64,000 nucleotides of DNA from assembly GCA_039621445.1 (NCBI GenBank), contig CP154954.1, positions 47,595,847-47,659,846 on the forward strand. Direction: 5' to 3'. The notes under the pieces are model-generated. The model saw nothing but the letters and a program-made list of their open reading frames with translations, did not search any database and was not told where the DNA came from. Each line of letters opens with the position of its first letter. Position 1 is the stretch's first letter. This document shows positions 1 to 47,766 of the stretch, one piece after another. This stretch comes from Euglena gracilis (lineage: Eukaryota). A program made the position numbers and the translations under genes.

Positions 1-210
1 GGCACCACACGCGGGCACGCAAGCACACAACACAGCACACAACACACAAACACAGAACACACCACAAACACACAAACGAATACACACACAGACAGGCAGG
101 CAGGCAAGGAGGCAGGCGAACTCCTGTACTCCTGACATGCATGTGCATTTCTGGGTTCAAATTGCCAGAAAACTCAAACATTTTCGGCAGAACCAGTGAT
201 GCGCACGTAC

Positions 211-12429: not shown

Positions 12430-15400
12430 CGCGCGCGCGTGGGGTGGATGTGGGTGTGGGTGTGGGTGGGTGGGTACGCGTGTGCTTTTTGACATCCCGG
12501 GTTGTTTTTCTTTGGTCTTCATACAGCAGATCCAATGCCTCCCGCCAAACACACATACCAACACACCCCACACCCACAGTTGCTCATGGACCCCGGGGGG
12601 TAATGTGGGTAAGGGGTAATGGGTAATGTGGGCTGGCTGAAAAAAGGCTGCTGGCTGCCCCCCCCCCCCCCGCCCCATAGGGGTCCCAGGCTGGAGCTGG
12701 GCCGACTGGGGGTCAAACCGGGTACCAAAATCTAAATCACAATAAAGGTAAAAAAAACCACTAATCATGCAAAAAAAAATCGACTTTTTGACCCAAAAAA
12801 CGTCCCGGATAGCTTTTTTCCAACCCATTTTCACCAATTTTTGGCCCATTTTTTTGCCCATTTTTGTGCCCCCGAAAACGAAAAATCCATTAAATCCAGC
12901 CGCCCGAAGGGCGGGTGAAAACAAATAAACTTGTTGATGGGGGTCCAGGGCTGGAAATAAGGGGAAAACGGTGCTGGCCGGCTTGACCCCCCTGGGGTGA
13001 GGTCAAATTTTCTTGAGCAACGCCCTGCACCCACCCACCCACCCACACCCACCCACCCACCCATATACCCACACCCCCACACCCACACCCACCCCCCCCA
13101 CATCCACCCCCCCCACAGGCGCGCGCAGGTGGGTGCACCCACCCACCCACCCACCCACCCACACACACACCTGGATACCGAACAGCTGCCAGAAGTCCAG
13201 CCGGCCGCTCTGGCTGCTGTCCACTTGCGCGGCCAGGCCGGCGATGCGGCCCAGCGTCGCCTCTGGCACCGCCAGGAGCTCCCCGAGGGCGAGCAGCTGG
13301 GAGAGCAGCAGCACCCCGCTGCGCATCGGGTCCAGCCTGTGGGGACGGGGGCGTCAGGGTGGGGGGAGGGGATGGTTCTATTCCAATGCGCTCTGGCAAA
13401 GCCAGACCACTGAAGGATCACCTTCTATGCATTCTTCAGAATGCAACCTGAAAGTTCCTTTTGTAGTCGGCGATGTTAACACCCCGTGCTAGGCATCGAC
13501 CAATGTATACAATGTATTTGCGTCGATGAATTTTTTTTGCCAGTTTCGAGTTTGGACTTGAGAAATTTGAAACCCCCAAATTACATGGGAAAGCTTGGTT
13601 TCAAACCAAGCTTGGGAAAGCTTGGTTTGAAACCAAGCTTGGGAAAGCTTGGTTTGAAACCAAGCTTTCCCATCGACAACCAAACACCCTAAACTGTCCG
13701 TCCGTCTGTCCGTCCGTCTGTCTGTCTGTCTGTCTGTTGGCCTGTCCATCACCCAAACTGGCAAAGTCAACGGCATTCACAATTACCCACCTCGTTCTTC
13801 TTTCCCCCTCATCCCAGAAAATGTGCGATGTGGCAACCGATGGTTCCACCGCTTGCACCGTGCCACAGTTCAGGCACGCGCAATGCGGACTTGACGAACG
13901 CGAGGCGGAACGCCACGAGGACGTTCAAGTCCACGGCCACGGCGTGGAACAGCTCCCAGTCCGCCACGCGCCGCGGCAGGCGCTTGTGCGGCGATACCGC
14001 GTACGACGTGGACGCCGACGGCGGCTCCAGCATCGGCGGCACGCCCCTCCCCCACGGTGGTTGGGCGGGGGACATCTGGGCTGTCAATTTCATTTGTTTG
14101 TGCAGGCGGGGGAGGGGGGGTTGGAAAGCATTGTCGACGTGTTCCGCCTGGAAATGCCCCAAAACGTTAAACAGTTGCATTGCATTTGATTTCGGCCAGA
14201 CGTTCAGCGGTGGCCATGACCCTCCTCGGAGGGGCCAGGACCACCCCCGCTTGGCCTCATATTTGCATGACCGCTGGTGATTGCAGACCTGCAGCTCCAG
14301 CGCCGTGGCCTTGGGCTGGGGATTTTACCTGACTGATTTTTGTTGTTGATTTATTTTGGAATTCAATTTATATTTCTTTATTTTTTGATTTTTTTTGGAA
14401 TTACCATTAAAACTGGGGGTGCTTCTTTGAATGAACCAAGTCTTTTGAATAGGGGTTTCACCCAGCAAGTTGATGGGGTCTGCCAGAGCCATTGTTCAGA
14501 CAAGGAGACGAAAGAGATTTCATAATTTTGAGGCGGTCAAACCCCCAAAAACACAACCCATGAGTTGCATTCAGACTCCAGCACGCATGTCTAGGACTGA
14601 TCTGAAAAGGCACAGACAATCCACATATTTAGGAGGAAACAGGCATAAAATAATAATAGAGCAGCCGGCACAATTTGCTGTGCCAGACAAGCACCAAAAA
14701 ATTTTCTGTCAGTGATTTATTATCAGACAACGGGGGGGGGGGGAAATCCCTCAACCAAAGACTTCGGAGAGTTCTCAAGAGAGTGCACATCAGACCCCAT
14801 AAAAAGATATGCTGGCGACCCAAAACAGGGTGCCACCTCCCAACAACTATCTGGTTCCTGCATCAAAATGAGAACCAGGTTCTTGCGCACGGGAGCTGCA
14901 TGGCCAGGAGGTTGCCTGACATGAGCTGGGGGCTTGCCGCAAGTGCCCCAGGGATGCGAGCATTCATCATCCGGAGCTCCATGTCCCACAACTCCTGCAA
15001 GAAAGAAAACAACAGGCCGTAATGCATACAGCGATAACGTGCAGGTCAACGCACTACCAGCCAATATCAAATGGAAGGGAGCAACAATTTGTTGCCCTCA
15101 ACACAGGTTTCCAAAAATAAATCTTCGGCAAACCTGCTGGGTCGCGTGAAGACGGTTGCTCCATTCCTCCAGACGCTGCACATCCGATGCAGCCTGCGGA
15201 CAACCACAGACGGAGGGGCAGATGGGTACTAAAAAAACCGGAGGATGTGACCTTTGGGGACTACTTGAGGGCGGACAAAACCCAAAGAAAACAACCCCAG
15301 AGGCAGATTGCCGCCTAGAAATTGATAAAGAAGGAAGAAGAAGAAGAAGAAAGAAAAATGAACTTCAAACTTCTATAATTCCACAAAATGAAAACAAAAT

Positions 15401-18400
15401 TCCCCCAAAACAACACAGGATGCTGTATGGTAATACCTTCATTGCACTGAAGTGAAGGAGTGATTCCCTCTTTGCCATCAACTCAGCCTCTGCCCGGTCC
15501 CGGGTTGCCTGCGTGAGGGTTGGTTGGGGTGGCAGGGGCTGCACGGAGTGAAGGATGGATGCCGTCAGGAACCAAATGGTATGCATAAAGGTGCTGTGCT
15601 TCCAGAACAGCGCAGGAGCCGGCACAGGGCTGACCAAAAGGAGAACTTGCATGCCCAGCACCGTCCGGGTGGCCATTTTGTCCGATAGGAGTGCCATCCA
15701 GCCATCCCCTCGGCGCACCATTCCCGAGACCCCACGCCCCCACGGCGCACACTTTGGCCCGCCGCCACTCCTCCCGCTGCTGGTCCCACTCCGCCCGCGC
15801 CTTCTGCAGCTGCGCCCGCTCCTCCTCCAGCTGGGCCCGCTGCTGGGCGAGGTCCCCCCCGCCGTCCGGCCCCGCCCCCCAGCCCGGGTCGGCGGCGGGG
15901 ACGGCCACAGCCCGGCCCAGCCCAGCCTGGGCCGCGGCCTGGGCATCGGCCTGCGAGGAATTGGGCCGAGTGGGCACTGGCATACGGAGGGAGTTCGCAA
16001 TTTTGAAAAGGCAATGCCTTCTCATTGGATGCTGCGCTGGGTGGGGGGGAAATACTTCGGGGGTTTCCCAAACACCAGTCAATAAAAAAAAACACCACTC
16101 ATGTGTGTGCAGGAATGCAACAATGAAAAGCGGAAAACGTGGGGGAGTGCGATGCCGAGAGAGTGAAACGAAAAAGTGAAATGTGGGGAAGCTGCGGGAA
16201 AGCTGCCAGATAAAGCTTGGCGATTGTGGCAAATAATCCACCTAACCACACCCACTTTTCTTTCAACACTTCTGCAGGCCTGGACAACCTCATCATAACT
16301 CCCTCCCAGCTTATAAGATCAGATTTAGTGGGTTTTGCAGGGGGGGGAGGTATAAGGTGAAGAAAAGTTGGTGAATATCCTATCCCTGAAAATTCCCCCA
16401 AACCACCAAAAGCCCAATCCTCGAAAAATAATTGTCAAAAATGATGTTTTGACGACGGTTAGTCGCATAAATATTAGCGACAATAGTTTCAGGGGGGTTT
16501 GAAGCAAAAAAAATTCGTCACCGGCATCTATTGCTTTCCTTTGCATGTCCTGAATGGCTCCAGGTGGAGGAGGGGTATATAACGAGCGAGGTGACCCACG
16601 GTTCGATATAATGGCAGGTGGAGGGGTTGGACCCCCTCCGGTCCAGGAGGGGGACACCCCCCCTCCACTGACCCGTACACCCTCTGGATATCAAACCCTG
16701 GGGGTACCCGATGCCCAGAAATGCCAACCGTCCAGCAAGGACCTTCGCCTTCTTCCACTCCTCGATCTGCCGGTCCAGCTCCTCCCGCAGCCGCCGGTGC
16801 TTGGCCCGGGCCTCCTCCAGGGCCGCCTGCCGGGCCACCAGCTTGGCGTCCCACGCCTTGTACCGCTCCCGCTCCGCCGTCATCGCCACCTCCAGCTGCC
16901 GCAGCCGGGCCTGGGGGGGGGGAGGGGGCACTGCGGGGGGGGGAGGGGGGGCTGGGCTGACCAGGGTCCATGCTGACCCCCCCCTTTCCACCCGCCAGGT
17001 GCGCCACTGAGAACTGCGGCCCTCCATGGGGAGGTGTGGCCTTTGTTAGGAGTGGACCCAGGAGTATTCGGCAGCCGAGGAATAACACCTGCAGATGGGG
17101 AATCCCCCCAACGGCCAGCAGGCCTCTGGTAATTAACCCTGGGGTGTGCCATGTGCTATGGGGTGCCCATAGCAGGCATCCTGGGGGGGGGGGGCGGTTC
17201 TGAACCCCGGTGCCTGCGACCCAGCCAAATTTCGTTTGAAAATGGCCTTTTCGCGACCTGGTGCCTTCGGTCCGGGGGGGGGGGTGCTAGCACTGCCCAC
17301 CCCAAAACCCGACCCCCCCCCTGCGGGGATCGAAAATGCCATGCTCCCCTACAGACAGTCATTTAGTGTGGTTCACAAAAGGCGTATGAACCACAAAAAA
17401 TATTTTGGCGTCCACAGGCGAACCACAAAATTTTTTTGGTGTCCACAAAAATTTTGTTGCCCACAAAACTTGATTGAGGATCGAAAAAAACCAAGTTTTA
17501 CAACTGAAAGCGGATTGATCTTGAGACACCTTAGCCAAATTGTGGACCTTGGCTCCGGCTCAATCCGTAAAGTGTGGCAGCGAATCACACCCCCAGGCTT
17601 GCATGGGAATCTCGGAGGGGGGGGGGTGGGGGGACCCCCCCAACCTCCAGTTTTCGGTGGCCGAATCTTCTCAGTTTCTGGGTCAAAAAAAAAAGTCGAA
17701 AAAAGCGAAGCAAAGGGGTGTGGGGGGTATTGGAGGGGGTCGCTGGCGTCTTAACCTTTCAAAAATTACTGTAAATAACCGTAAATTGCACGTGTGTGAT
17801 TTGTAAACCATAATTTATGCGAAATTTGCAATGCTGGTCTTTTCAGCCGTCCATGACGTGCAAGTCCCATTAAGATCTCAACGCTATTCAAACCTGGTCC
17901 CTCACCCCCCAAGTTTCGGAAGGGGGTCCTCCCACCCCCCCCCTGCTCTGTGGGGGGAAAAAAATCATCTGGCGCTTTGCGCCGGGTGTGTATTTTAGGA
18001 CCCTCTTGAGGCTCAATACAAAAATTTGCACCCAAATGCATGGGTTCCGAGCCAAAAAAACGGGGGGGGGGGCGGGGGGGCGAAAAACGCTCATTCTTGG
18101 CTCAAAAACAGTTCTTCCAGGTCCGAGAAACATCGTTTTGGCCAATCTTTTTCTTCGATTTTCTTCGAATTTTTCGACCTTTTCAACCCAAACATGGCCG
18201 AAAACGGCCAAGTCAAAACAAGCCAAAACTGTACAAAATGGCCCAAAAAATGGCCGTAACTCAGGTTGGGCGGGGAGTTGCGGGGAAATCAAAATACCCT
18301 TAGATAGGGCTTCAAAGGGCTTCAATTCAGGTCTCCGAACGTTTCCTTTGACTCCCCACCATTGAACCACAAAAAAATTCTTGGTGTCCACAGGTGAACC

Positions 18401-21400
18401 ACAAAAAAAATTGGTGTCCACAATGAACCACAAAATGACAACCTTGGTGCACTACACTAAATGAATGTCTGCTCCCCGACTTCCCATAGCACCCCCCCCC
18501 CTGGGAGTGCAATTTTCTTCAAAAAAAAGCCTGGACCGGAGGTGGGGAAGCAAACCAAAAATTGTCAATCACCGCAATGACCAGGCAGGTGTGTCACAAA
18601 CTTCGTCAGGAATGCCGTCTGCAAAAGTTGAGTTTATCATGCAAAACCTCAACGATGCTTTTCTGAATGGAACGATCTCAAACCCTAAATTGCCTTGCAT
18701 TGAAAAATGCATTCATTGGGTATTGCATTGGGAAAATGTGGGGGATGTGGGGGCTGCGAGAGGGGATGGTGACACTCTGCATCAAAAAATGAAGATATGC
18801 AGAAAGGCATGAAATATGAAAATGAACCATAAAAAAGCTTGGAGGAACTGGCAATCATCACTTATTTTCAAAGTCTTCAAATTTCGGAACCCCCCCAATC
18901 AAATAACTCCCCAGCTTTCGGCGTCGGGTGCCCAATCAATAATTTATTAATTGGGGGGGGGGTACAAATTTACACCCCTTGGTGTAAATTTGTAACCCAC
19001 CAAAAAAAAAAGGAAGCAAAAAATTCACACACCTTCTCGTGGTTCAGCTTCATCTTCTGTTCCCTCAGCATGTCCTTCTCGTTCTCATACTCCTCCAGGG
19101 CCTGGGCTAACACCTCCACCTCCTTTGCCAGCGCCTCTTGCTCTGTCATCATCAGGAGTTTTATTAACGACCCGGGGGGGGGAGGGGTCCAGCTGCCCCC
19201 CCCCCCCCCGGCTGGAAAAAAGGAGTTGGCATGACTCCCTGGGGAGGGGGGTCCAGCCAGCTGGCAGCTGGACGATTTCTGGTCCACGCGGAGTCACCTT
19301 CCATGTTCAAAATCTAGTCATCCACCCCCCCCCCCGCCCTGGGGGTCAGTCACTTTGACCACTCGGGCCAAAATGGCTCAAAATCAATGGACATTGGCCA
19401 ACCCCTGGAAAAATTCTGCCGGGTGGGAACTTTCGACCATTCCTGGTGACCCCCCCCCCCTCAGGGTGCTGGAGCCAAAACCAGCCAGTCATCCCGCCCC
19501 CTAAGGGTGGGGTTGGGCGCACCTTAAGCATGGTGTACCTGAAAACGGGCAAGCAAGCCCAAATCCGGCAGGGTTGGGAATTTTCAACCAAGAATTTTGA
19601 GACCAAAACCTCAAAAATTCACATCGAAATGCTTTTCTTGACTGGTGTTTGCATCGGAAATATCTTCGCCCAACTTTATTTCACCAGGCCCTTGGGGAGA
19701 GGGTCTGCAGCTGGCTGGCAGCTGCTGGCTGGAAAAAAAAAGGCCCTGAGTAGGGGTTTTTTTGAGGACCCCCGGAGGGGTCCTGTGGGCCGAAAAACGT
19801 GCCGGCTAGAAAAAAGCTGCTGGCTGGACGCTGGGAGCTGGACCCAACAGGTACCCAAAAAATGCCCCAAAAAACCCAAATCCAGCTGAAATTGGCAAAA
19901 ATAGGAGGTGAAGACCACCCAAAATGCCATTTTTTTTGTCACTTTTGACCCCCTTTCCTAAAATTTTCGGTGCAGAGTGCCAAAAATTTTTTCGGTCCAT
20001 CCCCAACTTTATTTCAGCGGACTCAGGGGTCTGCAGCCCGGCTGGGAGGTGCTGGCTGGAAAAAAGGTGCTGGCTGAACCCCCCCCCCGGGGTAACCCCC
20101 CGTTTTAAGGACATAGTTTCGGATCCCACTTACTGGAGCACCCATTGGGGCACCGCGCACTTATTAGAGCAAAGCACAAAATACTGTCCCCGGAAAAAAT
20201 AACAACCGGAAAAAATAACAACCGGAAAAAATAACAACCGGAAAAATAACAACCCGGAAGGCTTCAGAGCAACAAGGATGTCAATATGGAATTCATGAAA
20301 AACTGGGTCCAGGTCATCAAATCAGGTCAGCGACGTCAATATCTGACAGGTCAAAATCGCAGTCAGCAAATTCTTGGTCGTTCACGGAAGGCTTTGCTGC
20401 AAGGACATGCTTTTCCATGACGATTCTGAAAGGAACAAAGGGGTTTGCTCATCCATACTGGCCCCGCCACCCTCTCAGCCAGGCCAAGTGAGAAAGTATC
20501 CAAAGAGCCATGGCGAAGGCGGGGCCTTTACACAAGAAAAAAATTGGAAAAATAACAACCGAAAAAATAACAACCTGAAAGGCTTGGGTTGTTATTTTTT
20601 CCGGTTGTTATTTTTTCCGGGGACAGTAAGTGATATTCCACCACTCTGTTTCAGTTTTTCCCCTTCTTGTGATGTCAAGCAGTGAGTCAAATGATCATGT
20701 GTCAAATTTGGGCTTGGACTATTTGGTTTGAGAAAGACAATTCTGAGAATTGTGTGACAGCGATTTCTCCTTTGGGGGGTGCGCACTTTTTGGGGAGGTA
20801 ATTCGGACCCTTGGGGGGGGGGGATGCGCACTCATTAGGGCACTGCGCATAATTAGATCATTGTGCACTTTGGGGGGGTCAGGGTTCCCTCCGGCTGAAG
20901 AAAACCCCCGGTCATCAGCGTCTGTCGGTCTGCAGCCAGTGTGGCTTCGGAGTCGGCCTGATCGGAAAACAACGCGTGCCAGTGTGCCACACTGCCCGCG
21001 GACCATAGAGTCATTCCTTGGTAGTTTCAGGCTGTTCTTTGTTGAGGTGCAAAACTGGAAAACTCTTTTGGTAACATCCTAAAACATTTCGACATGTTTT
21101 AGGTCAAAAGAATCGCGCTTTGCGCCGGTCACTGGGGAGATGAAATCCACCAGCCAGTTTTGCTGTTCTGCCAGGGAGAGGGGGTCCAGCTAGTGGCTCT
21201 TCTCCTGTGGCCAGCAAAAGTGGACAGCTATTGGACCCCTGGTGTCCTGAAGCAAAAGCCTGCTTCGAGGTGTGGTTTCTCTTTGGCAACAGAAGCCACG
21301 ATCCCAAACCTTGGCCCATAGCCACGTGTCCCGCCTCTTCTCGAACTCCTCCAGCCGCAGCTCCAGCTCGGCCTTCAGCGCCTTCAGCTGCTCGTCCGCG

Positions 21401-23320
21401 TTGGCCCATTGCCCGGCCCCCTGCAGCAACGCCTGCTGCAGCTGTTGCTGCATCACCGCCTGCCAGCGGGGCAGCGGCCAGGGAGGACGGAGCCGGGATG
21501 GCACGGGCATCCACCTCGAGCCACGCAATCGATAAACGAGACGTGCTCGTACTGCCAGGCTGTGCCCACTCACTGACCCTGCCGGCAACAAAACACGTAG
21601 AAAATGGTTGGGAAAAATACGTGTGGCGGAGATGGAAACAGAAAGAAATGCCAGGGAAACGCCGTCCTCACCAATTGCCAAACACACAAGCGCCATAACC
21701 CAAATCCAACTGCATCATGCTGCCGTTCCACCGGGGCAAGCAGCCGGACGTCTCGGCGCAGCCACTGATCGGACCAGGCTCGGAGCCGGGCCAACGCCCA
21801 CACACCTTCTCCCCCTGCAGCTGAACATAATGCTCCTGCAGCGTCTCCCGTTCCCGCTGCAGCTCCGTCAGGGCCACCGTCAGCATCGCCACCTCCTGCC
21901 CCAGCGCCTCCTGCTCTGTCGTCAGCGTCTGCCGGTCCGCGGCCAGCGTGGCCTGGGAGTTAGCCTGCGGATTGGGGGGGGGGGGGCTCCGTGGCGAAAC
22001 GTGGTGGTGGGCGGCAGCAAGGACGGCCTTGTTGGCCAAAGCAATGTGTCAGAGGACAAACTCACAAACACGGCATCACTTACCAAACCCCGGGGGGGGG
22101 GGGCATCTCAGAGGCTCAGGTTTTATGTCATCAAAACTGTTTGATTGCCAGAAATTGTCTGTTCTGTCGAAATATCGCTGCCACCAATTCCGTTGGCAAG
22201 ATAGGAAAAAATTTGATCCCGATTCTTATTTGATTCAGGGTTCTCATTTGGGAGTTTATCATTTGGGGACAGAACCGACAATGAACCTCACACAAAGGGG
22301 TGAAAGGGGTGGATGCACAGGTGGATGGGCATTGTGTTGTTATGTTGTGTTGTGTTGTGTTGTGTTGTGTTGTGTTGTGTTGTGTTGTGTTGTGTTGTGT
22401 TGTGTTGTGTTGTGTTGTGTTGTGTTGTGTTGTGTTGTGTTGTGTTGTGTTGTGTTGTGTTGTGGCGCACTGCTGTGGGCCTCTCCCCTGTGATCCATGC
22501 GGAGAAAAAGCCTGGGGCCACAGTCGGACACACACCCATACCTGTGTGCCTGCGAGTTCACACTCGTCATCAGGGGGGCTGCTTCAAAAAAAAATGAGCC
22601 CATCCCCCTGGGGGGGTCCAGCCAGGCATTATTTTTTAAGGAACCTTAAAAACCTCAGAAATACGTTTAAAAATTTGCCACAATGCCTTTAAACCCCTCA
22701 ATAAACCTTAAAAATTCGTCCCAGAAAAATTACGAATTTCGAGCAAAGAAATAAATTGAAAAATCTCGGCAAAAAACAAGTCAACTCCGGGGAAAAAAAT
22801 AGTTTCTGGCATCGCTGGAACATTGTCAACCCACCCAAAACTCAAAAAAAACTCAATTTGTTTTTTGAACCTTTTTGATTTTCAACCTGGACCGACGTTG
22901 GCTCGATGCCCGGAAGACTCTTTGACTCCCCTTGGAAAATAGACACCTTGAAAATGCCTTAAAAAAACTTTTTTTTAAAAAAAAATCCGCCTTAAAAGAT
23001 AATGCCCGGGTCCAGCCAGCCAGCAGCCCCCCCCCCCCCCTCCCGGCTCAACGACTTACAGTGGTTGGGCCACTGGCTAGTCCATCCACTAGTCGATCCG
23101 ACTCCCAGTTGCCCTATCGACCAGTCGACGGTCAGTCGACCGATTTTCAATTTCTTTTGTGTGCAACTGCTTGGAGGGCCCCAAAGAAAAAGAAACCCTT
23201 GTGTTGCATACGTTGTTTTGCTACATATGCGTAAACGTAACTATGTTGTGCTTTGTTTATATATATATATATATAATATATATATTATATATATATTATA
23301 TATATATGATAATATCTATA

Positions 23321-23363
<43 letters not shown>

Positions 23364-26300
23364 ATATATATATATCTATATATATATATATATATCTATA
23401 TATAGTAATATATATGCTATATATCCGATATATATATATATACTGATATTCTAATTCTCCTATATATATATATATATATATGGTCTTTCATCAGAGTGTT
23501 TCACCGGGGAAAATATCTGGCTGGTTCAATTGCCGACGGGAAAAATGCTGTCGGGAAAACTATTGGACGAACTTATAAAACGCCAATAAAAAATCTGGAC
23601 GCCCACTTATGGACGGGAAAAAATTAAAAAAAAAATGCACGAAAAAATCTCGTGAACCCATTTTTCAGGGTAATACAAGAGAATGTGCACCAAATCCCGG
23701 TTTCCACAGATCCAAAGTTCAAAAGCTAATAAAATGCGAAACTTCAAAAAACAAAACGACGCAAAAAAAAACAACACATTCTTTCATTTTGAAGGATTAC
23801 TGATGACATTCTAAACAAGGGATTTGGAACGCAAATATGCTCCAAAATCAGCGCAAAGCGCCGAAGAAAATTTTTGGGTGTTCACTGGAGAAAATTAGAT
23901 TTTTCTCAAATTTGCCAGAAAAAACCTGGATGGATCCTTAAAAATGGAGGGAGAAATCCTGGACAAAATTTCGTCCAGAATTATTCCCACAACAATTTTT
24001 CCCATCCAAGTCCCCCCCCCCCCGGAGTTGACCGACTAGTTGGTTGACTAGTCGACAGGGCAACTGGCTGAACCCCGATTAAACGGGGCAGAGGTATGAT
24101 GCACGCCTGCACACAAATGGTGCAGGAATGGTCTCCAATCGTCACAAACATGCCAACAGATCAAGGAAAAGGACCCCTAAGGGGGGGGGTCCAGCCGGCT
24201 GGCTGGAAAAATGTAATGGGTGGAAAAAAGATGCTGGCTGGACCCCCCCCACAGGGCGTAGGGGGTTAATGGGGGGTGGCTCCTACCGGATGCCAGGCTG
24301 GACCCAGCAGGTACTGGAAACAGGCAAACCAGCCCAAATCCTGCTGGGTTGGATTTTTTTTTAGCCAAATTTTTGACCCGACCCTGGGGATCCCCTGGCT
24401 GGAACCAGGCCCAACTGGGGGTCAAACCAGGTGCCAAACAATCGAAACTGCAAAAAACAACAACAAAAAAATCAATTGTGCAAAATTCAAGTTTTTTGCC
24501 CAAAATTTGCTCTGGCCAGCCCGATTCTGGCCTGTTTTGCCCATTTCCCTCTCATTTTGGCACCTCCAAAAACCGAAAATACGTCACCGTCCAGCCAGCC
24601 TTCGGGCAGCTGCAAAGGAAAAAAAATTCTCTCCCTTGTCAATGGGGAGGGGCGGCCCCAAACATCAGAGTGGGGGGTTCTGACCAGTCAATTCACCAGT
24701 CAATCAACTGGCTTTGTTGGTGGAAGATTTGGGCTGGCTGGAACAGGCTGATGGCTGACCAGTTCCAGCCCGGTACAGCCAGGCTTTGATACAAGGGGGG
24801 GGGGTCGGACCCTCCTCCGGTCCAGCAGGGGGACCCCCACCTAAAAAGTGGCGCAAGGTTGGGTTTTGGGTCCCCCCCCCCAATTTTTGTTTTTTGGGTA
24901 CCCCCCAAAAAACACCAAAAATTTGTATTTTTGGGAAAAGGCCGATTTTGGCCAAGAAAAGCCATTTTTCAAAATTTTCTGCGCCTGCGGCGCCAAAAAG
25001 TATATCCCACCCCCCTCTGGGCCCCGGGGGGTCCGGCCGGACCCACCCCAACCCCCCCCTCCCCCCCGGGGGTGCGGCCTTGAATAATCCCTGGGGCTGC
25101 AGCCGGAATCGAACCATTGACCTGAAAATGTAGGTAAAAATCACAATCTCTGACTACAAAGTACGAAAAAAATCGATTTTTCTGGATCATCTGGCCTCCA
25201 AATAAATGCTAGATTTCATGAGAAAGAACAAAAAATGACCCCAAAGGGGGGTTTTGGCGCTATTTTTGCTCCTACGGAACTTCGAAAAATTTCGGAAAAT
25301 TTTGGGAAATAATACCCCCCCCAAATAATACCCCCCCCCTCGGGCCGGGACCTCGGGCAAAAAAATAATACCCCGGGGGTATTATTTGGGGGGGTTTACA
25401 TGTCTCGGCATTTTGAAAGGCTTTGTGCCCCCCAAAAATTCAGCATCCAAAATTGTACAAACTAAACTAACTGGACTAACTGGGTGGGGGAAGGTCTGAC
25501 TATTGAAAAAAAAACGCCAGAAAGCGTTTCAAGCAGGCGGGGAGTGTTCAGGACAACTCTGAGCGACAAGCCCCTTTGTGATTTGGTGGATGTCGACCAT
25601 TGTTTCCCGTGGTTGTCTCTCATCGTCAATGGAGACCCAAAATTTTGATTTTTGGGTACCCCCCAAAAATTTTGGGCCGATTTTGGGACCCCCCCCAACA
25701 ATGCAAAACCAAAACCCAACCTTGAGTGGCGTGTTCTGGGTGACAGATTTTCACCCCCCCCCCCCAAACGGCCAAAAGTGCCATGTCGGGCCTTTGGGCT
25801 AAAATTTGTCAAAAACGCTAAAAATTTTCGGCGGAAAGCGCCAGAAGGAAAGAAATTCACCTTTTGGGGGGGGTCCTGGGCACCCCCCCCCCCTGGGGTT
25901 GGTCCAGACCAACTTGGCAGGTGGGGGGGTCCAACCCCCCCTCTGGTCAAGGAGGGGGGGACACCCCGACCTAAACCCCACAAACCCTCCTATTATCGAA
26001 CCCCTACCCCCACCCCTGGGTCCAGCCAGCCAGCACCTTATTCCAGCCAGCCAGCCAGCAGCTCCCAGCCACGCTGCAGACCCCCCTGGCGGGGTTGAGC
26101 GGCAATAAAACTTTTGCAGCCCAGCGAAGCTGGGCTGGACATAGGGTGAGGGTAACAATTTTCGCCTCAGGTCAAGCCAAAATTTAGCTAATATTTTTAG
26201 CACGAAATTGACAAAACTTAGACCTCAATTGAGGCCTAAACTTAGACCTAAATAAAAATGTCACCCGAACCTGCCGAATACTCCTCTGCATCAATTTGAG

Positions 26301-27442
26301 CACTCGAACTCCCGTCGACTTACTCCACCACTCCAGGTTTTAGCAAGCGGGAAGCAAAAGCAGCTCCGTCGCAAGGGACGGGCGAAAGCCCTCCAGTGGG
26401 ACAGACGGCTGGACGCCCGGCCGCCCCACACCTTGGCCCACAGCCAGGCGTCCCGCTTCTTCTCGAACTCCTCCTCCCGCAGCGCCAGCTCCGCCTTCAT
26501 CGCCCGCAGCTGCTCGTCCGCCCCGGCCCACTGCCCGCCCTGCCGCAGCGCCTGCTGCAGCTGCTGCTGCATCGCCTCCTGCGGCACAGGGGGGCGGGGG
26601 AGAACACAGTTCGGCGGAAGAGGCGGAGCGTGGCCCGGAACAGAAAAGACCAGCGGTGGGACCAGCTGGAGGGGGCCGAATGCTGCATCAGGTGTAGCCC
26701 ACCTCGAAAATTCGCGGGGCAGAGCGCCGGAAATTTGGGGGAAGTGGGCTAGAAATGAGGGGGAGTATAATGGGTCTTGGGGTTTTGTAAACATAACTGA
26801 ATGGGGGGGGGCTGTATGATGCAAAACGAAGGTGCAATAAAAATTATTACCCTTTAAAAACACGTAGGTGCGCGGAAATTGATAAAAGACGAACTAGAAA
26901 TGCCTTTAAAAGGGCGTTGTATCAACCCTGTTTTTTTTGTGTTTCATAATTTTGGGCAACATGAGGCCAGGGATTGTTGAGAAAGGAAATATTTTTACGC
27001 TTCTCAACCTGACTGCGCTTCCAGGCCTCACGCTCCTTGGCGAGGCTCTCCTCGGCCAGTGTGCTCGATGCCTGCGCGGCCGCCAGCCGCTCCCGCAGCT
27101 CCGCACAGCGAGCCGCCTCGCGCTGCAGCGCCTCCTGCAGCTGCTGCAGCCCACCAGCCTGCCCGGGAGGGGAGGGCAGGGAAGATGGGTGTATTGATCT
27201 ATACAGACGTACATACATACATACATACATACATACATACATACATACATACATACATACATACATACATACATACATACATACATACATACATACATAC
27301 ATACATACATACATGCATACATGTATACATACATACATACATGCCTGCATACATACATGCATACATACATGCATACACACATACATACATACATGACATA
27401 CATATCCACATCCATACATGCATACACATTTCCATAAAAACG

Positions 27443-27505
<63 letters not shown>

Positions 27506-27719
27506 ATATATACATTTTTATATATATGGCAAGTGTTAACTTTAGTACCCCTGGGGGGGGTACTAAACTTGACACCAGGTTGGGAAAGGGTTACCCTAAC
27601 CCTAACCCTAACCCTAACCCTAACCCTAACCCTAACCCTAACCCTATCCCCAACCCTAACCCCCGCCCAACCTGGTGTCAAGTTTAGAACCCCCCCGGGG
27701 GTACTAACCTTAACACTCG

Positions 27720-27765
<46 letters not shown>

Positions 27766-30700
27766 ATATATATATATGTACTTTAAGTACAAATTTATGT
27801 ATTATTATTATTTATTTATTTACCAAATTTATGTACTTTGCACATAAAAGAAAACACACACGTGTTCCATACAGAGAGGTCTGCACTTTCTAGAAACCAA
27901 ATTTCTGGCCCCTTTGTCAGCATACCCCCCCCGGGGGGGTTAAACGACACATCAAAACGGGGACAGGTGTGTGCAATTATCAGGACAGCAACACAAAATT
28001 GCGAACCACATCCTTTTCACCTACTCTTCACTATTTCCAATCCTCTTTAATTGTGATTTCAAGCAAACGGATCAAGAAAACTTCATGTGTTTGCTTGAAA
28101 TCACAATTAAAGAGGATTGGGAATAATGAAGATGGGTGGAAAGGTTCACAATTCTTCAGATTCAGATACCATTTCAGTTGACTAATACATTGCAGGACCA
28201 AAAAATTGACGAAAACATAGCATTTTATATCATGAACTTACGGTGGCCAAATAAAACAATAAAACAAATAAAATTATGCCACCAGTGGCAAAAGTTTTGG
28301 CAAAAAAACACGCCACCAGTGGCGAAACTTTTGACAAACACATCTGGCATAGGTGGCCTGCAGTTCATTTGATCATCAAAGACTGTTTCAAATTGGTGTC
28401 ACTTTTCTTTGAAAAAAATTGAACTTGGAGAAACCACAATTATCATGCATTTTTGGTTGCAATTGAATAACGTCAGTTAGTGTTCTGGAAAAGTGCCGTT
28501 GACACGGGGGGGGGGTGTCAACGACACGGTGTGTCTTGGACAAAGGTGAGAGGAGGTACTGTTGAACTTGGCCGCCGAAAAAAAGATGGATTGTGTTCAT
28601 GGCTATAATTTTTTGGGTGCAAAACTTTCCAGGGAGGATGTTCCAGGCCCTCCAGGTGCACACGTACTGGTTTTCGCAATTATCATGGTGCACAATATTG
28701 GGGGGGGGTTAAGGCACCTGCTCCGGGGGAGGGATCACTTTAATCTCCGCCGTCTCCACCGATTGCCCCGGCCGCTGAGCCCCTCGCTGCAGCTCCTCCA
28801 AAGCGTGCTGCAGGGCCGCCTGGCCGGCATTGGGAGGCCAAGCAAAGTGCACCCGTTGAAGCCCCACCCTCCCATGCGACAAGTCCCGGGAGGAGGAGCG
28901 CATCAACGCTCCGTGAAGTGAACAAAACATGGGAAACATTGTACCAAATGCCAACGGCGATGACGATGGCGACAATGAAACGATGCGGTGCCCTGAGATC
29001 ACTGGAATCATTCCCGCGAGAGGTGCTGTTGCACAGAAACCGAAACATATGCACTGATATTTTTAAGACATCACACTACCTCCACCGACAAACACCCTTT
29101 GGTGCTGTTTCTATACATTTTCTTTCACGTCTTGCTGTAATGTGTGGGATTGTCAAAGAAGCGCACAGAGACACAGATTGAGAGGACACACGTATTCTGC
29201 CTGAAGAGTATGGCGGGCTGCTGTCTCCGTTTCCAAGGCAGCTAACGCTGGGCCACCCATGGGCAAGAAAGAGAAACACTCTCACGGCTCTTTCTTCAGT
29301 TCAGTTCTTGTTCTTCTTTGTTGAGGTCACCAACCCCTTTCTTCTCAAATATCTCCTGTAGACTGACTGAAAGAAACGGATTGAAACTCCAGGGACGCAA
29401 AAAAAGGGCAAGATCCGTCCTTGAAAGAGTGTAACTCTCGCCAAAGGGTCGATGGGGACCCGGCCCGGGCCAGGTCCCTCTCCCCCCAGGCCTGTGACAG
29501 CTGAGCCGGCAACGGGCCTCCCCCCCCCCCCCTGCGTCGCCAGCGGGACCCACCCGGGGGGGGAGGTGGGAGGGGGCGGCCCGGGCTGCATCGCCTGGAA
29601 CTCCGCCACGGAGACGGTCCCCTGCTGGGCCTGGCGGTGCTCCTCCAGGGCCTTCTCCAGCTGGTCCTGCCGGCCCGGGGGGGGGGGGCTTCCGGCTTTG
29701 CAATTCGAGCCAAAACTGGCCTGGTATTGGAAAAGAACAATGTACAGGGATTCCCACAAATTCGTGCTGACGGCCCTTAATTCTGATTTGTGATTATTCG
29801 CGCTACCAAAAAAGCGCCTGGGTTTTCCTATTTCCTGCACAAAACAACAATACCCATTCGCAATACAACACAATTTTCCAGTATTTTTTGATATTTTTGA
29901 GGACTTTGCGAAAATTTAGCTAAGAAAATCATTTTCTGAAGGATGATGTAGGTGCCTCGGTCAAGCTCAAGGAGGACACAAGATAACTGTAATTCAAAGC
30001 TGATACAAAAATAGCCGGAATGGCCAATAATGCCGGTGCTTGGAGGAGAGTAATTATCACCTCTTGTCCATGTTTGTTTTCCTTCAAGGGAAATTGATCC
30101 GGGACAGAGGATCAAAAGGATGGACATTCAGAGGAACAGATTCATAAAAGAGAGAAAAGCTCGCTCATTATTCAGGGTTGTTTGTGGTCATTCGTGCAAA
30201 TTCGTGATTTTGGAAAATCACCAAATTTGTGCCGGTTTGTGATTATTCATGATTATTCGTGGCACGAACTTGTGGGAATCCTTGCAATGTATGTGATGAT
30301 GTGCCAACATGTTTGTGTGTCTAATCGTCTGTTAAAAAACAAATCCCTTTGGGGAAAACGTTATAAAAAAAAAGAGCTAAAAGTCGTCTTTCGTCAGCCG
30401 AATCATCCCAAACAACCAAAATCCATAAAAATCATTCCAACAAAATTACTTTCATAATACTTCCCAATTATTTCGGAATCTCGAAATTTTGGTATAAAAA
30501 TATTTTATTTCTTTACACACTGCATATGTGCGTCATATGTGCGTATGAGCCTGTATATGTGCTCATGAAGGGATGGATGCCTGCATTTGTTCGTAGGATG
30601 AACCCAGCAAGCAACTTGGGGTGGGTGACACACCCGCTTCTGCAGCCAACCCCGGCGCTCCGTTTCCAGCTGGCGCAGAGCGGCCTCGACCTCAGCGAGG

Positions 30701-33204
30701 CGGCTGGTCTTTTGTTGCAGCGCCGTGCGGAGCCGTTCCAGCTCCGACTCCGGGGAAAGCTGCGAGGTGCAAACCCATTCATGTCCACAGTTGCATCACC
30801 ACCAACCTGCAAACCCCTGAAACATCGAAATAAATCACAGAAAAATGTCATTTTCAAAAATTCGGAAAATTCAGAAAGTGCAAGAAACCACAAAAAAAAT
30901 GGGCAAAAAAAACACAAAAACTGAGGAAATCACAAAAAAGTTCCCAAACAATGAGAAAAACAAAAAAGTGTACTGAAATTTATGTGCAAAAACGCAAAAA
31001 AATGCGCATATCCCCTGCTCAAAATATGCGATGCAAAAATGCAACAAACGAAGGTGCGAACAGTGGAATGTGCAGCTTCAGGCTGTCTGGGTATTCTGGT
31101 CAAACACAAAACAATAATTTCTCATATTCTTTCAAAATTACGCAAAAAAACGCGACCTTTGAAGATTCTGGATACCGAACAAAATATCAATTATGCAAAT
31201 TGCATCCCCTCTGTTGACCACCTTGGTTTTCTCATCTCCCGCAACTTCAATGAGATGAACATTTGAGGGCCATCTAGACAGGTTTGGAACAGGCAATACA
31301 ATTTTTATGGCGCCTGTTCAAAAAAAATTATTTTTTAAAACTTAAAATGCTCAAAATGTTGGGCCAAAATGCCTTAAAATGCCTGAAAATGCCAAAAAAA
31401 ATTGGACCAGCAAAATTTTCTCTCATTGAACAAAAGTGAACCACAAAATCTCGGCAAAATCAGCCCAACTTGGGGGGTAAAAATTATTTTTGTCATCGCT
31501 GGAACATTGTCTATCCATCCAAAACAAAAGAAGGTTTATTGTTGACTTTTTGATTTTGGACCGTGTGCAAAATCAAAAACATCGGTTCGATGCCTGGACA
31601 GCCCTTAGACCACAGCACCTTAAAAAGCTCTAAAAATGCCTTAAAAAGCCTTGAAAAAAAAACGCCATAAAATGCTTTAAAATGTTTTGCCTTAAAAAAT
31701 GCCTGGTTTGGAAGTCTTGGGCTTGAAAAAAAAAGAATTTTCTGAAGGTATTCAGGAAATAAAAGACGCACACTCTGTACAATGTCGATGATGTGCCAAA
31801 CACCGTGCGCTGGCACCCCCAACACCCCTCCGGCCTGGCCTGGCACTGCCAGGCACACACCTCCTCGCCCTGGAAGAAGGACCGGCTGGCGCGGCCGGCC
31901 TTGAGGGACGTCAGGGCAGCATCCCGGTCGATCATCGCCTCCAGCGCCCGCTGCTCCGCCCGCTCCACCGTGGCCCGCGCCTGCTCCAGCCGCTTCTCGA
32001 TCCCTGGCTGGGGGAGGCCGCTTCCAGAAGGACCTCCGGGCAGCAAGCCAGAAGGAAAGGGGGTGGAAACAAACCGGCCCGGAACAGTGGGACAGATGCT
32101 GCTTAAAGGTGCTGGCACACCTGAAAACCACCCGTGTCACCGGAAACTGGCTCACGAGCCCATCCTGTTTGCAAGGGCCACCATCCTGTGTAACTTCCTG
32201 GCTACATATGGTCCCTTTCGTCGTCAGACAAGAGACACAGACATGACTGCACAAAGTTGGCATGGCTTGACTGCAGCATCGGACAAGAATGAAATTAGTC
32301 GATTGGGGCGTCGATCCAGTCTCCAAATAGTCTAAATGGTTCGGCAGTCCAGCTGGGTCTGCCGCTGCCGCCACTCAGGCCGGGGACAGACCGACGGAGT
32401 CCGCGCTGGAGGGCCGGCGATGGGAGGTGTCCTGGTCCGCCGCAGCCCTCGGCCAGCAGTCCACTGGCCCCCGGGGCCCATCCCCGGTGGACGGCCGGGG
32501 CCTCCTTGCGGACGGTGGACACCTGGCCCGCCGGCTCCCTAAGCCACATGGCCGAACAAAGCTGGAAAAATGCCGCTGCTGGGGGGGGGGGGGCAGAGAC
32601 AAAATCTTAGGTGGCCGCTTGCACTTGACACATAGTTGGCCTGTTCTTTGAACAATTGTGTAAAGGAACACAAAAAAGCTGACGTGCGAGATTGGCCGCC
32701 CAAGAAAAATTGATCTGACTAACGGCAAAGAAATGGCTAAAATTTTTGTTGCAGTTGAAAAAGCGCGGGCACCTCCACAAAACGCAAAAGTAACGTTTCA
32801 CCTCATGAATAATGCCATTTCGTTTTACCGTCCAGAAAATTTTGGCAATTTCCTTAACATGGTGCAGGCATATTTGGCGAAGTTTGGTGACCCCCCATCC
32901 ACCGGCCGGTGGGTGGGGACGGAGCCCCCAATCTCCTCCGGGTCCTGGGGAAAGAGTTGTTTTGTGGCAGCGTGGTCAGATGTTTGTACATTCTTGTCTC
33001 ACTGGAAAGGAAGTCTAGATTCAATGTTTGCACTCAACAGGTGGCTAACAGAAGGGAATCCTGTGGTTGTGCGGTTGCCTGAAGCACTGAAGCAAAATTG
33101 GCCAACCTTGAAATTCTTTACCTCAGTGCCGAGGCTCGCCAGGGCAAGGGCTGGCCGTCACTGAACAGCGGCCCGTTCAGCCGGCCAGCCGGGGGGTAGG
33201 CCAT
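11293..33204 (-). CDS. Large multi-exon coiled-coil protein with C-terminal EF-hand-like pair
   Basis: Exons: 33204-33122, 32944-32903, 32522-32392, 32003-31861, 30759-30651, 29666-~29587, 28819-28718, 27158-27009, 26578-26432, 21964-21806, 21459-21310, 20957-20914, 19147-19033, 16910-16743, 15950-15753, 15508-15437, 15193-15134, 14994-~14880, 14315-14289, 14075-13891, 13336-13171, 12538-~12486, 11494-11293. Most joins are GT-AG with matching phase. Heptad-rich E/Q/R/A/L peptide; EF-hand-like loops [14 protein letters not shown] and [14 protein letters not shown]. Start, stop and a few joins are tentative. Confidence 0.7.
12306..12428. repeat. (TG)n microsatellite
   Basis: Direct reading. 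Confidence 0.95.
13587..13671. repeat. 27-bp tandem repeat x3, each unit a palindrome
   Basis: GGGAAAGCTTGGTTT(C/G)AAACCAAGCTT repeated three times. Confidence 0.9.
17352..18471. mobile_element. hAT-like MITE
   Basis: TIR CAGACAGTCATTTAGTG / CACTAAATGAATGTCTG; TSD ctccccta/ctccccga (7/8); subterminal GAACCACAAAA repeats. Confidence 0.75.
19148..20913 (-). other. Nonconventional (euglenid-type) intron formed by a MITE
   Basis: CTGAT|gacCGGGGGTTTT...AAAACTCCTGatgat|GACAGAG. Y|R at both junctions and a 10-bp stem in the +4/-6 register. Removal gives 44+115=159 nt, the same length as the paralogous uninterrupted exon 21964-21806. Confidence 0.85.
22333..22463. repeat. (TGTGT)n pentanucleotide microsatellite
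   Basis: Direct reading. Confidence 0.95.
22623..23008. mobile_element. hAT-like MITE family B
   Basis: TIR CAGGCATTATTTTTTAAGG / CCTTAAAAGATAATGCCCG; perfect TSD GGTCCAGC. Confidence 0.8.
23258..23481. repeat. (TA)n microsatellite
   Basis: Direct reading. Confidence 0.95.
24854..25724. mobile_element. TIR element with CAAGG ends and 7-bp TSD (P-superfamily-like)
   Basis: TIR CAAGGTTGGGTTTTGG / CCAAAACCCAACCTTG; TSD AGTGGCG; inverted homolog at 34250-35591. Confidence 0.75.
27210..27527. repeat. (TACA)n followed by (TA)n
   Basis: Direct reading. Confidence 0.95.
27528..27721. mobile_element. MITE carrying a (CCCTAA)n core
   Basis: TIR GGCAAGTGTTAA..TAGTACCCC / GGGGTACTA..TTAACACTCGCC; telomeric repeats at ~27594-27660. 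Confidence 0.65.
31290..31705. mobile_element. hAT-like MITE family B
   Basis: CAGGCA...TGCCTG ends; perfect TSD GTTTGGAA; body similar to 22623-23008 and ~53725-54100. Confidence 0.8.
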
Positions 33205-36157: not shown

Positions 36158-43927
<7,770 letters not shown>

Positions 43928-46045: not shown

Positions 46046-46183
46046 CAGCTGGCTCTTGAACCAAATAAAGAAAATGAGTCTTGTCAGTTTTGAGGGGAGG
46101 GGGTCGAAAAGCGATCTGATTCCCCCACCCCCTTTGTGTTTTTACGTTGGCTGATTTTATGTTTTATGTTTGCCGATGGCCAG

Positions 46184-46690
46184 CAGGGAATTTCTTAAGG
46201 ACCCCCCGGGGGGGGGGGGTCCAGCCTCCGGCTGGCAAAAAGGCTGCTGGCTGGATTTGAGCTGCTGGCTGGACCCCCCCCCCGGGGGGGGGGGGGGGGA
46301 GGGGGGGGGTCCGGGGCTGGAGCGGGCTGGGCTGGGCTGGGTTGAGGAAAAACAAAATTTTCTAACACATTTTGGCCATTTTCGACATTTTGATGGGTGG
46401 AGCTAGGTCAAGGCTGGGGGGCTGTAATGGAGGGGCTGTGATGAGGGGGGAAAATGCAGGGATAAGTGAGCTGGACAGCCCAGTTGGCTGGCCGGCCTGT
46501 GGCCGGCTGGGCCGGCCTTCGGCCGGCTGGCCCGGCCTCCGGCCGGGCTGGACCCGACTTTATTTCACTCGACCCCGTGGGGGGGGGGGCTCCCAGCCCG
46601 AATTTGGGCTGCTGGCTGGATTTGAGCTGCTGGCTGGCTGGACCCCCCCCCCCGGGGGGTAGGGTACCCTCCGGCTTAAGAAATTCCCTG
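46184..46690. mobile_element. hAT-like MITE family C (free copy)
   Basis: Perfect TIR CAGGGAATTTCTTAAG / CTTAAGAAATTCCCTG; perfect TSD ATGGCCAG; GCTGGCTGG-rich body. Confidence 0.85.
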
Positions 46691-47314
46691 ATGGCCAGGC
46701 CTGGCTGAGAGATGTGGGCTCCGGGGGCGCGGTCCATCGCGTTGAATCCGTTCCAGCCGGGTGGATACCCCTCTGGGCCTGAGTGGAGATTACCAGCGTC
46801 ACAGGTTGGGAAGTGGGCACAGTGGTTGGGGGGATGGGGTTAAAAATGAACCCATGCAAATTTCAAGTAAGAATGTGGTCTTGTATGGATCACAGCAAGC
46901 GTGTGGAAAGATTTATTTTTTTGGCCGCCACTGTGACACATGAGAAAAAATCATTGGCATTACACCAGCCGTGGAAAATATTTGGGCCTTGCCCTCTCTC
47001 CTCTGATTGGGGTGCCTTGTGCCTCACGGTGGAAAACATCTGGACTGCACAAACCCTCCTCCAATTAATACCCCCCCTTGGGGTCCGACCAAAAAATAAT
47101 ACCTCCCATAATTTTGGGCCGCCGAAATCGATTTTCGCCTGAAAGAATGTGGTTGAAAATAGGAATTCACAGCAAAAAATGACAAAAAAAATGGGTTTTG
47201 TGGATCGTCTGGCCTACAAAAAACCCAATTTTTGCGGGGAAAAAAATACTCAAAAAATAACTAAAAAGGGTGGTTTTGGGTGATATCTTGCGTCTCAGGA
47301 TTTTACAATAACAC

Positions 47315-47766
47315 CAGGGGGGGGGGAAAAAATGCAACTGGGCCCTTCAAATTATGCAAGTCAAAAAAATGCAAAAAAATGCAAAAAAAATGCAAAAAAT
47401 GCAAAAAAATGCAACTTGCATGAAAAACCTGAGAAAAAGCTGGAATATAACAGAACTTTGCTGCCTAAGATCAAAAAAAATTTCCAGGGCAAAATATTTT
47501 ATGCAAAAAAATGCAAAAAAAATGCAAAAAAATCCATAAATATGGCAACCAACAACAAAATTTTTTTCCAGGGCAAAATATTTTATGTGGAAAATGCAAA
47601 AATATGCAAAAAATTTCAAACATATGGCAACCAACTACAAAAATTTTTTCCGGGGAAAATATTTTATGCAAAAAAATGCAAAAAAATGCAAAAAAATGCA
47701 AATTTCGGGAAAAGCCGGTTATGCAAAAAAATGCAAATTATGCAAGTTGCATTCCCCCCCCCCCTG
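47315..47766. mobile_element. hAT-like MITE with (AAAAAATGC)n body, nested in another repeat
   Basis: CAGGGGGGGG..AATGCAACT / AGTTGCATT..CCCCCCCTG; perfect TSD AATAACAC. Confidence 0.85.

Follow-up and report, generated by a model that had tools for sequence, protein, structure and literature searches.

Background

We describe an intron of 1766 nt that interrupts one of two duplicated exons in a gene of Euglena gracilis. The gene lies within a 64-kb stretch (64,000 nt) of contig CP154954.1 of assembly GCA_039621445.1 (positions 47,595,847 to 47,659,846), and this whole stretch is called the window throughout. Nearly all of the intron consists of a non-coding insert that has the terminal inverted repeats (TIRs) and the target-site duplication (TSD) of a DNA transposon, and the intron is removed exactly from RNA. 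We put at about 80% the probability that it is a working nonconventional intron derived from a hAT-like non-autonomous element. This reading is favored because the anatomy of the insertion, the relation of the insert to a family of elements, its exact removal from RNA and its fit to a published splicing code were each observed directly in the analysis.

Nonconventional introns of euglenids form the closest described system. They have also been described by Milanowski et al. (2014 and 2016), and a splicing code for them, 5'-N3CDG-/-CH'GN5-6|R, has been derived from knock-in genetics (Nomura et al. 2025, PMC12501133). According to the same paper, the 5' spacer must be exactly 3 nt long and the 3' spacer 5 (or 6) nt, and natural CGG-CTG introns could be spliced in the tests (section 11). 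Elements resembling MITEs (miniature inverted-repeat transposable elements) were proposed as a source of nonconventional introns by Milanowski et al. in 2013, at which time no transposable element had been identified in euglenids (PMC3935182). In 2016, a strain-specific gapC intron of E. agilis with 8-nt direct repeats was reported, and break repair was suggested as its origin (PMC4770533). A review of 2024 depicts euglenid introns as having TIRs at +4..6 and -8..-6, along with repeats that resemble TSDs (PMC11282704). How nonconventional introns arose is treated as unclear or hypothetical in a 2025 paper in the Proceedings of the National Academy of Sciences, a 2025 paper on diplonemids and a 2024 paper in BMC Genomics.

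The intron in the window shares with the described euglenid introns the lack of GT-AG borders, a CGG at +4 to +6, a CTG at -8 to -6 and a purine as the first base of the following exon. It also shares a junction that can slide along direct repeats, residence in a gene with introns of both types, and exact removal from RNA. There is no difference in kind. The intron thus belongs to an established class, and its transposon origin can be seen unusually completely, but it does not represent a new kind of system. What it adds to the known examples is a donor family that includes a copy with perfect TIRs and TSD, together with a paralogous empty site within the same gene.

Several other systems invite comparison. 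Introners, known from Micromonas, dinoflagellates and other organisms, are likewise DNA elements with TIRs and TSDs that insert into exons and become introns, and their TSDs contribute to exact removal (PMC11282704). However, introners rely on the spliceosome, which cuts them at GT/GC-AG sites that come from the element or the TSD (PMC11282704). The Euglena intron has no such register, and its cut sites appear to be set by distance from the TIR stem, in the euglenid nonconventional pathway. Also, introners occur as many near-identical copies in different genes, whereas the copies of the Euglena family described here all come from the window. Non-autonomous hAT elements and MITEs share with the insert an 8-bp TSD, short TIRs that begin with CAG or nearly so, the absence of coding sequence and the presence of more than one copy, but the insert, at 1758 bp, is too long to be called miniature. 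In maize, Ds insertions in genes can undergo partial splicing (Giroux et al. 1994, cited in PMC3935182). That splicing is imprecise and spliceosomal, whereas the removal of the Euglena intron is exact and nonconventional. Finally, intron 4 of gapC in E. agilis ACOI 323 (PMC4770533) is also nonconventional, occurs in one lineage only and has 8-nt repeats at its junctions. It was polarized by comparing strains and was attributed to break repair, with no element family, whereas the E. gracilis intron has such a family.

In full-text searches whose reach did not extend to subscription journals and supplements, no paper was found in which a donor transposon family is named, non-intronic copies with TSDs are shown or the 3- and 5-nt spacers are equated with an 8-bp TSD. 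The locus unites a family having a perfect TIR/TSD copy, an insertion into an exon, an empty site in the paralogous exon and proof from RNA that removal is scarless and occurs in the register defined by the experimental code. This is direct evidence of the sort that the standing hypothesis of a MITE origin has lacked. The locus also suggests a specific and testable explanation for the 3/5-nt geometry of the splicing code.

Two duplicated exons, one of them split

The host gene extends on the minus strand from about 33204 to 11386, as mapped by using P0003, an 805-residue protein derived from a transcriptome (source label eukprot:EG_transcript_3498). Its product is coiled-coil-like, and all Pfam matches are below threshold. 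According to the protein mapping, the gene has 21 introns, of which 14 are conventional and 7 nonconventional. In the stretch 14000-22300, to which RNA reads were also mapped, the spliced coding sequence of nine exons stays open for 351 aa. The conventional introns in this stretch are all in phase 0, and exons start with an Ala codon in 7/9 cases and end with a Lys codon in 6/9.

A pair of exons is duplicated in tandem within this gene, in the order (M',A)(M,B), and each pair comprises 150 + 159 nt, or 103 residues. All four exons are on the minus strand. Exon M' (26432-26581), upstream of exon A, is 100% identical to P0003 residues 266-315 and has 81% amino-acid identity to exon M. The latter (21310-21459, 150 nt) is the partner of exon B, lies between A and B, and is defined by RNA joints and protein mapping. 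Exon A (21806-21964, 159 nt) is the uninterrupted paralog. It has AG/GT borders, shows GT-AG joints in RNA on both sides, and encodes P0003 residues 316-368 with 100% identity. One RNA joint, 21963>21309, appears to go back along the gene because exon M' is a paralog of exon M.

Exon B is split into a 5' part of 44 nt (20914-20957) and a 3' part of 115 nt (19033-19147). Both parts are supported by blastn and an RNA joint, and the 3' part also by mapping of P0003. An earlier reading of this DNA, made from its letters alone (the sequence-only reading), had proposed that these two parts are the divided copy of exon A. The comparison agrees: without gaps, exons A and B are identical at 110/159 nt (35/44 in the 5' part and 75/115 in the 3' part) and at 30/53 residues. 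No third exon of the A/B type was found in the window.

When exon A is used as a blastn query, its positions 5-47 match 20953-20911 and its positions 41-102 match 19151-19090. Seven bases of the query are thus aligned twice, which is the mark left by a target-site duplication. Self-alignment pairs 20911-20960 with 21918-21967. In exon A, the 8-mer target site is present as a single copy at 21925-21918 (sense CTGACGAC), so the empty site that had been postulated in the same gene is there. Retention of the 1766-nt intron leads to a stop after 34 aa.

Anatomy of the insert

The gap between the two parts of exon B, 1766 nt, equals a 1758-bp element at 19153-20910 plus one copy of the 8-mer. The element is non-coding and composite, has ends of the family type described below, and is assigned no strand; it was delimited by its TIRs, its TSD and the alignment of its ends. 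One TSD copy, GTCATCAT on the plus strand, occupies 19145-19152. In the sense of the RNA, five of its bases make up the 3' spacer of the intron and three open the 3' part of exon B. The other copy, GTCATCAG on the plus strand, occupies 20911-20918, with five bases that close the 5' part of exon B and three that make up the 5' spacer. These flanking repeats match at 7/8 positions. The TIRs are identical at 10/14 positions, or at 11/16 if extended. One arm is CAGGAGTTTTATTAAC at 19153-19168 (plus), and the other is CGGGGGTTTTCTTCAG at 20895-20910 (minus), followed by a AGCCGGAGGG-ACCCT stretch. A TIR element with exactly these limits and an 8-bp direct repeat had been recognized in the sequence-only reading.

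Within the intron, the insert contains a nested Stowaway-like MITE of 447 bp (20182-20628). It has 42-nt perfect inverted ends, built from a 16-nt CCGGAAAAAATAACAA repeat, and TA on both flanks. This MITE looks young and evidently leaves splicing undisturbed. Elsewhere in the insert are two family-like sub-terminal modules (19669-19738 and 20002-20065), which are 79% identical, and a stretch near 19751 that resembles a left end. The internal modules could not be resolved into nested elements with TSDs of their own. Among the 12 candidates listed for elements with 8-bp TSDs nested in the intron, the outer pair alone was convincing. Two of the 28 internal open reading frames (ORFs) listed were scanned and gave no Pfam match, and no ORF of the insert is longer than 176 aa. 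A search of 14000-28000 with Rfam gave no match.

With 1758 bp, the insert exceeds the limit for miniature elements (~800 bp). It is 3.5 times the size of the 507-bp copy at 46184-46690, and we therefore regard it as composite. The earlier identification as a MITE holds for the family-type ends, the TIRs and the TSD, but not for the size and the composite build. The implied recency of the insertion has to be qualified as well: with a TSD match of 7/8, a TIR identity of 10/14 and a nested MITE, it is not brand new.

Relation to a 507-bp element

In the 507-bp family member at 46184-46690, the 16-nt TIR and the 8-bp TSD (ATGGCCAG, at 46176-46183 and 46691-46698) are both perfect, and this element apparently lies outside coding sequence. 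For each of its ends, the best match in the window apart from the end itself is the corresponding end of the insert, with the arm at 19153-19168 being the counterpart of the 46184 end and the arm at 20895-20910 that of the 46690 end. In anchored alignments of 45 nt, 19153+ versus 46184+ scores 22 and 20910- versus 46690- also scores 22, whereas pairing of unlike ends gives 3 and 1. In a background set of 1297 45-mers that begin with C[AG]GG, a score of 22 is reached by the self match and the partner only. One end of both elements runs on as TTAA-GACCC-G-run-GGTCCAGC, and the other end of both has the extra AGCCGGAGGG-ACCCT stretch. The likeness of both ends to 46184-46690, asserted earlier by eye, is thus specific to like ends, and the comparison supports the assignment of the two elements to the same transposon family. 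Within the window, this family comprises two clear copies and fragments.

The terminal motif of the hAT superfamily is YARNG. Both arms of 46184-46690 start with CAGGG, and the arms of the insert start with CAGGA and CGGGG, each of which has one deviation from the motif. We infer the putative hAT affiliation from two characters, the length of the TSD and this end motif.

A candidate third copy at 54626 was rejected, as it has a single recognizable end, no partner and no TSD. A metagenome scan with the right-end pattern of the family gave 0 matches. With the left-end pattern, 60 loci were found, which is approximately the number expected by chance, and none of them continues like the family. 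Ten left-end loci from one metagenome assembly, and an eleventh from a related assembly, share an identical upstream flank and were set aside as a different palindromic repeat.

The family relation bears on the possibility that the insert arose not by transposition but by repair of a double-strand break, in which filler DNA was captured and an 8-nt direct repeat was left behind. Such repair has been proposed as the source of the 8-nt direct repeats at the recently gained gapC intron of E. agilis (PMC4770533). At the present locus, however, the captured DNA would need to have both TIR-family ends, in the right orientation, at the borders of the repeat by chance. Moreover, the second family member, at a different site, is flanked by a perfect 8-bp repeat of its own. 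We consider break repair extremely improbable here.

Exact removal from RNA

RNA reads from four runs (X21, X22, X24 and X15) of three studies were mapped on 14000-22300. The joint 19144>20911, which skips 1766 nt and has a register ambiguity of 7 nt, is carried by 51 reads in three runs and by one contig, so the exon junction predicted from the sequence is found in RNA. Run X21 contributes 30 of these reads (11+19, with 29 distinct starts), X22 contributes 19 (4+15, with 17 distinct starts) and X24 contributes 2; the contig, with a depth of 43.5, is from X15. The RNA nature of X15 was initially a guess, but contig 1 of this run (1608 nt) is collinear with five spliced exons, which shows X15 to be complementary DNA (cDNA). 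In an independent transcriptome, residues 419-471 of P0003 cross the exon B junction with 0 mismatches. Within 14000-22300, every other joint of the gene that is well supported reads CT..AC on the plus strand, corresponding to GT-AG on the strand of the gene.

Reads across the junction are abundant, and read depth within the intron is low. The element had been presented as one caught in the act of becoming an intron. It is indeed an intron, but one that is already working. Among the RNA joints listed, there is no back-joint 20910>19153 of the kind expected for a circular intron.

These reads could be misleading if the insert-bearing copy were a disrupted allele and the junction reads stemmed from another allele without the insert, or from a paralog elsewhere in this large genome. 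Expression of more than one haplotype is in fact evident, as two variants are found among the junction reads at position 19138, which is 7 nt from the joint. At this position, the number of X21 reads equals the junction count (30), and 13 reads have the assembly's T while 17 have C. The 13/30 reads with the assembly's own base place the insert-bearing haplotype among the spliced ones, so both haplotypes are spliced. Two further observations speak against a disrupted allele: in 14 DNA runs, the fraction of sampled words present is 0.72-0.77 for a stretch of which 60% is intron, and the intron fits a code that has been shown experimentally to work for CGG-CTG introns. We judge this explanation very unlikely.

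Differences between RNA and assembly were seen at 19138, 16845, 15146, 18299 and other positions, often in about half of the reads, and a few residues of P0003 do not agree with the window. Such variation is suggestive of allelic or strain differences at an expressed locus with multiple haplotypes.

Fit to the splicing code

The 7-nt repeat at the junction allows eight registers for the intron. Their borders are TG-GA, GA-AT, AT-TG, TG-GA, GA-AT, AC-TG, CC-GA and CG-AC, and GT-AG, GC-AG and AT-AC are absent from all eight, which extends the earlier remark that the interrupting sequence lacks GT-AG. As placed by read mapping, the intron ends are GT..CG on the plus strand. Exactly one register fits the published code, and it is the one given by the exon coordinates of the sequence-only reading. 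In this register, the intron occupies 19148-20913 on the minus strand and reads GAC-CGG...CTG-ATGAT, with CGG at +4..+6 and CTG at -8..-6, and the first base of the downstream exon is a purine (G at 19147).

The element itself begins and ends with these trinucleotides, CGG and CTG, while part of one TSD copy provides the 3-nt spacer and part of the other the 5-nt spacer. Since 3 + 5 = 8, the element and the equivalent of one TSD are lost on splicing, and the message that existed before the insertion is restored.

Registers also matter for the idea that the ordinary spliceosome removes this intron at non-canonical splice sites. In favor of this idea, the spliceosome is active on the same transcript, which has 14 conventional introns. 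Nevertheless, 0/8 registers provide one of the three terminal pairs named above, whereas one register fits a separate code that was defined genetically. We give spliceosomal removal hardly any credence.

By inspection, 12 of the terminal 13 nt are able to pair in the sense RNA (including 2 G-U pairs), and 10 in the antisense RNA. Both TIR mismatches are compensated by G-U pairs in the sense RNA only (2/2, P = 0.25), and this observation was not used as evidence. From the published mutagenesis (PMC12501133), we infer that the machinery probably reads the TIR stem at 19148-20913.

Proposed mechanism

In the mechanism that we propose, a non-autonomous hAT-like transposon that makes an 8-bp TSD and has ends of the CAG...CTG type would have inserted into exon B of the duplicated pair. 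The euglenid nonconventional pathway recognizes a C-D-G / C-H-G stem formed by the ends of an intron, and it cuts upstream of the 5' motif, at a distance of 3 nt, and downstream of the 3' motif, at a distance of 5 nt. The terminal CGG and CTG of the transposon would act as this stem, and the 3 + 5 nt outside it would amount to one TSD copy. The RNA loses the element together with one TSD and regains the frame that it had before the insertion (..DRQTL M TEQEAL..). Later events, among them the arrival of the TA-flanked MITE and of the family-like modules, enlarged the intron and left splicing undisturbed.

A broader idea, which we put forward tentatively and rate at somewhat less than even odds, is that the nonconventional splicing code is the direct imprint of one transposon type, with spacers that sum to its 8-bp TSD. 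The required CAG/CTG stem may then represent the ends of hAT-like elements. If so, the pathway may erase insertions scarlessly and in either orientation, whenever the sixth base of the TSD is a purine. Much of the nonconventional intron load of Euglena may be a fossil record of MITE families, and recognizable families such as the 46184 type may be current sources of new introns.

Gain, loss and evidence against a transposon origin

Gain of the insert after the duplication of the exon pair is the parsimonious order of events, because it requires one event whereas loss requires two, and we consider it highly probable. The sequence-only reading had drawn the same conclusion. The order rests on parsimony, as the window has only two exons of the A/B type, and none that could polarize gain versus loss.

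The alternative order is that the insertion preceded the duplication and that the intron was later lost precisely from exon A, for example by recombination with spliced cDNA. Since nonconventional splicing restores the pre-insertion sequence without a scar, a precise loss would look identical to an empty site, and the window has no third exon copy to serve as an outgroup. However, in addition to needing two events, such a loss would have been confined to one intron, as exon A has retained the conventional introns on either side (346 and 4467 nt). Seven of the eight TSD positions also still match, whereas third codon positions differ between exons A and B at 20/53 sites, a contrast that is not significant (P ~0.13). 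We regard loss from exon A as improbable, although less so than the other alternatives considered in this report.

Several observations weigh against the origin that we favor. With only two A/B-type exons in the window, the order of events is unproven, and the contrast between TSD (1/8 differences) and third positions falls short of significance, as noted. The fold of minimum free energy for the whole intron, which is rich in G/C runs, uses other helices and not the TIR helix. In addition, the duplex energy of the two 40-nt ends is ordinary, being matched by 14.6% of 1000 random 40-mers. No transposase domain was found in 12 scanned ORFs (2 in the intron and 10 long ones in the window). Among the 15 nonconventional introns mapped in two genes of the window (see below), 9 fit neither the code nor the TIR/TSD pattern. 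Lastly, one locus in one window does not establish the origin of the whole nonconventional class.

Other nonconventional introns in the window

A PCNA-like gene neighbors the host gene, with exons from 43927 to 36191. It matches EG_transcript_22509 (P0001), with 100% identity in 8/11 aligned pieces and 72-92% in the other three. By using the two transcript-derived proteins P0003 and P0001, we mapped 31 junctions, of which 16 are conventional and 15 nonconventional. EG_transcript_3498 (P0003) accounts for 21 of them (14 conventional, 7 nonconventional) and EG_transcript_22509 for 10 (2 conventional, 8 nonconventional).

The code is fitted in some register by 6/15 nonconventional introns of the two genes. 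The flanking 8-mers of these six introns are identical at 7, 6, 5, 3, 3 and 2 of 8 positions, where 2 is expected by chance, and the intron at 19148-20913 is the best preserved (7/8). Second is a 180-nt intron of the PCNA-like gene at 41162-41341 (minus), which contains a 172-bp element at 41167-41338. Its structure is N3(GGG)-CAG...CTG-N5(GTGGT)|G, with a TIR match of 11/14 (CAGGGGGT-type ends) and flanks that match at 6/8. The six introns look like a decay series that leads from a recognizable transposon to an anonymous intron. Part of the element at 41167-41338 resembles 31355-31401 (79% over 47 nt).

In a scripted check, no code register was found for 6/8 nonconventional introns of the PCNA-like gene. 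Within the host gene, the nonconventional intron at 14035-14905 (minus, 871 nt) has RNA and protein support, with an RNA joint carried by 1 X21 read and one X15 contig, yet no code register fits it. A test for open frames across reconstituted empty sites, meant to show which MITEs lie within exons, was also tried and rejected. It is uninformative in this G+C-rich DNA, where even the frame of the true intron was not top-ranked.

Other elements and repeats

The window has four TIR pairs of the form C[AG]G...C[TC]G with 8/8 flanks, compared with 0, 0 and 1 when the flanks are shifted by 8, 16 and 24 nt. Three of the four look like real elements: 46184-46690, 22623-23008 and 47315-47766. The element at 22623-23008 (386 bp, GGTCCAGC) has a perfect 8-bp flanking repeat and is located within the conventional intron (4.4 kb) on the upstream side of exon A. 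A relative with 68% identity, at 31327-31557, is found in another intron of the host gene. The element at 47315-47766 (452 bp, AATAACAC) also has a perfect 8-bp flanking repeat, as well as poly-G ends and internal tandem repeats.

A separate family of 300-bp MITEs has four copies, at 6836-7140, 36625-36886, 48541-48830 and 57485-57786, that are 75-82% identical. Its members have CAGGCTGT-type ends, and their flanking 8-mers match at 6-7/8 positions. The PCNA-like gene harbors the copy at 36625-36886 in the last of its nonconventional introns.

At 27593-27662, an intron of the coiled-coil gene that hosts the split exon contains an interstitial array that resembles telomere repeats, (ACCCTA) x 11.7. 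Near it are the long microsatellites (TA) x 112, (TGTTG) x 25 and (ATAC) x 56, at 23258-23481, 22338-22464 and 27201-27426.

Adjacent to the 3' part of exon B, the 2122-nt conventional intron at 16911-19032 contains a 1120-bp element (17352-18471) with a TIR match of 13/14 and a flanking repeat of 7/8. In X15, the bin 18155-18431 has a very high depth of ~660. Two RNA joints that go back along the gene, 18080>16935 and 18080>17613, were also recorded here, as were poly-G loose ends at 18062/18080. The region 17352-18471 looks like an expressed repeat or a source of rearranged transcripts.

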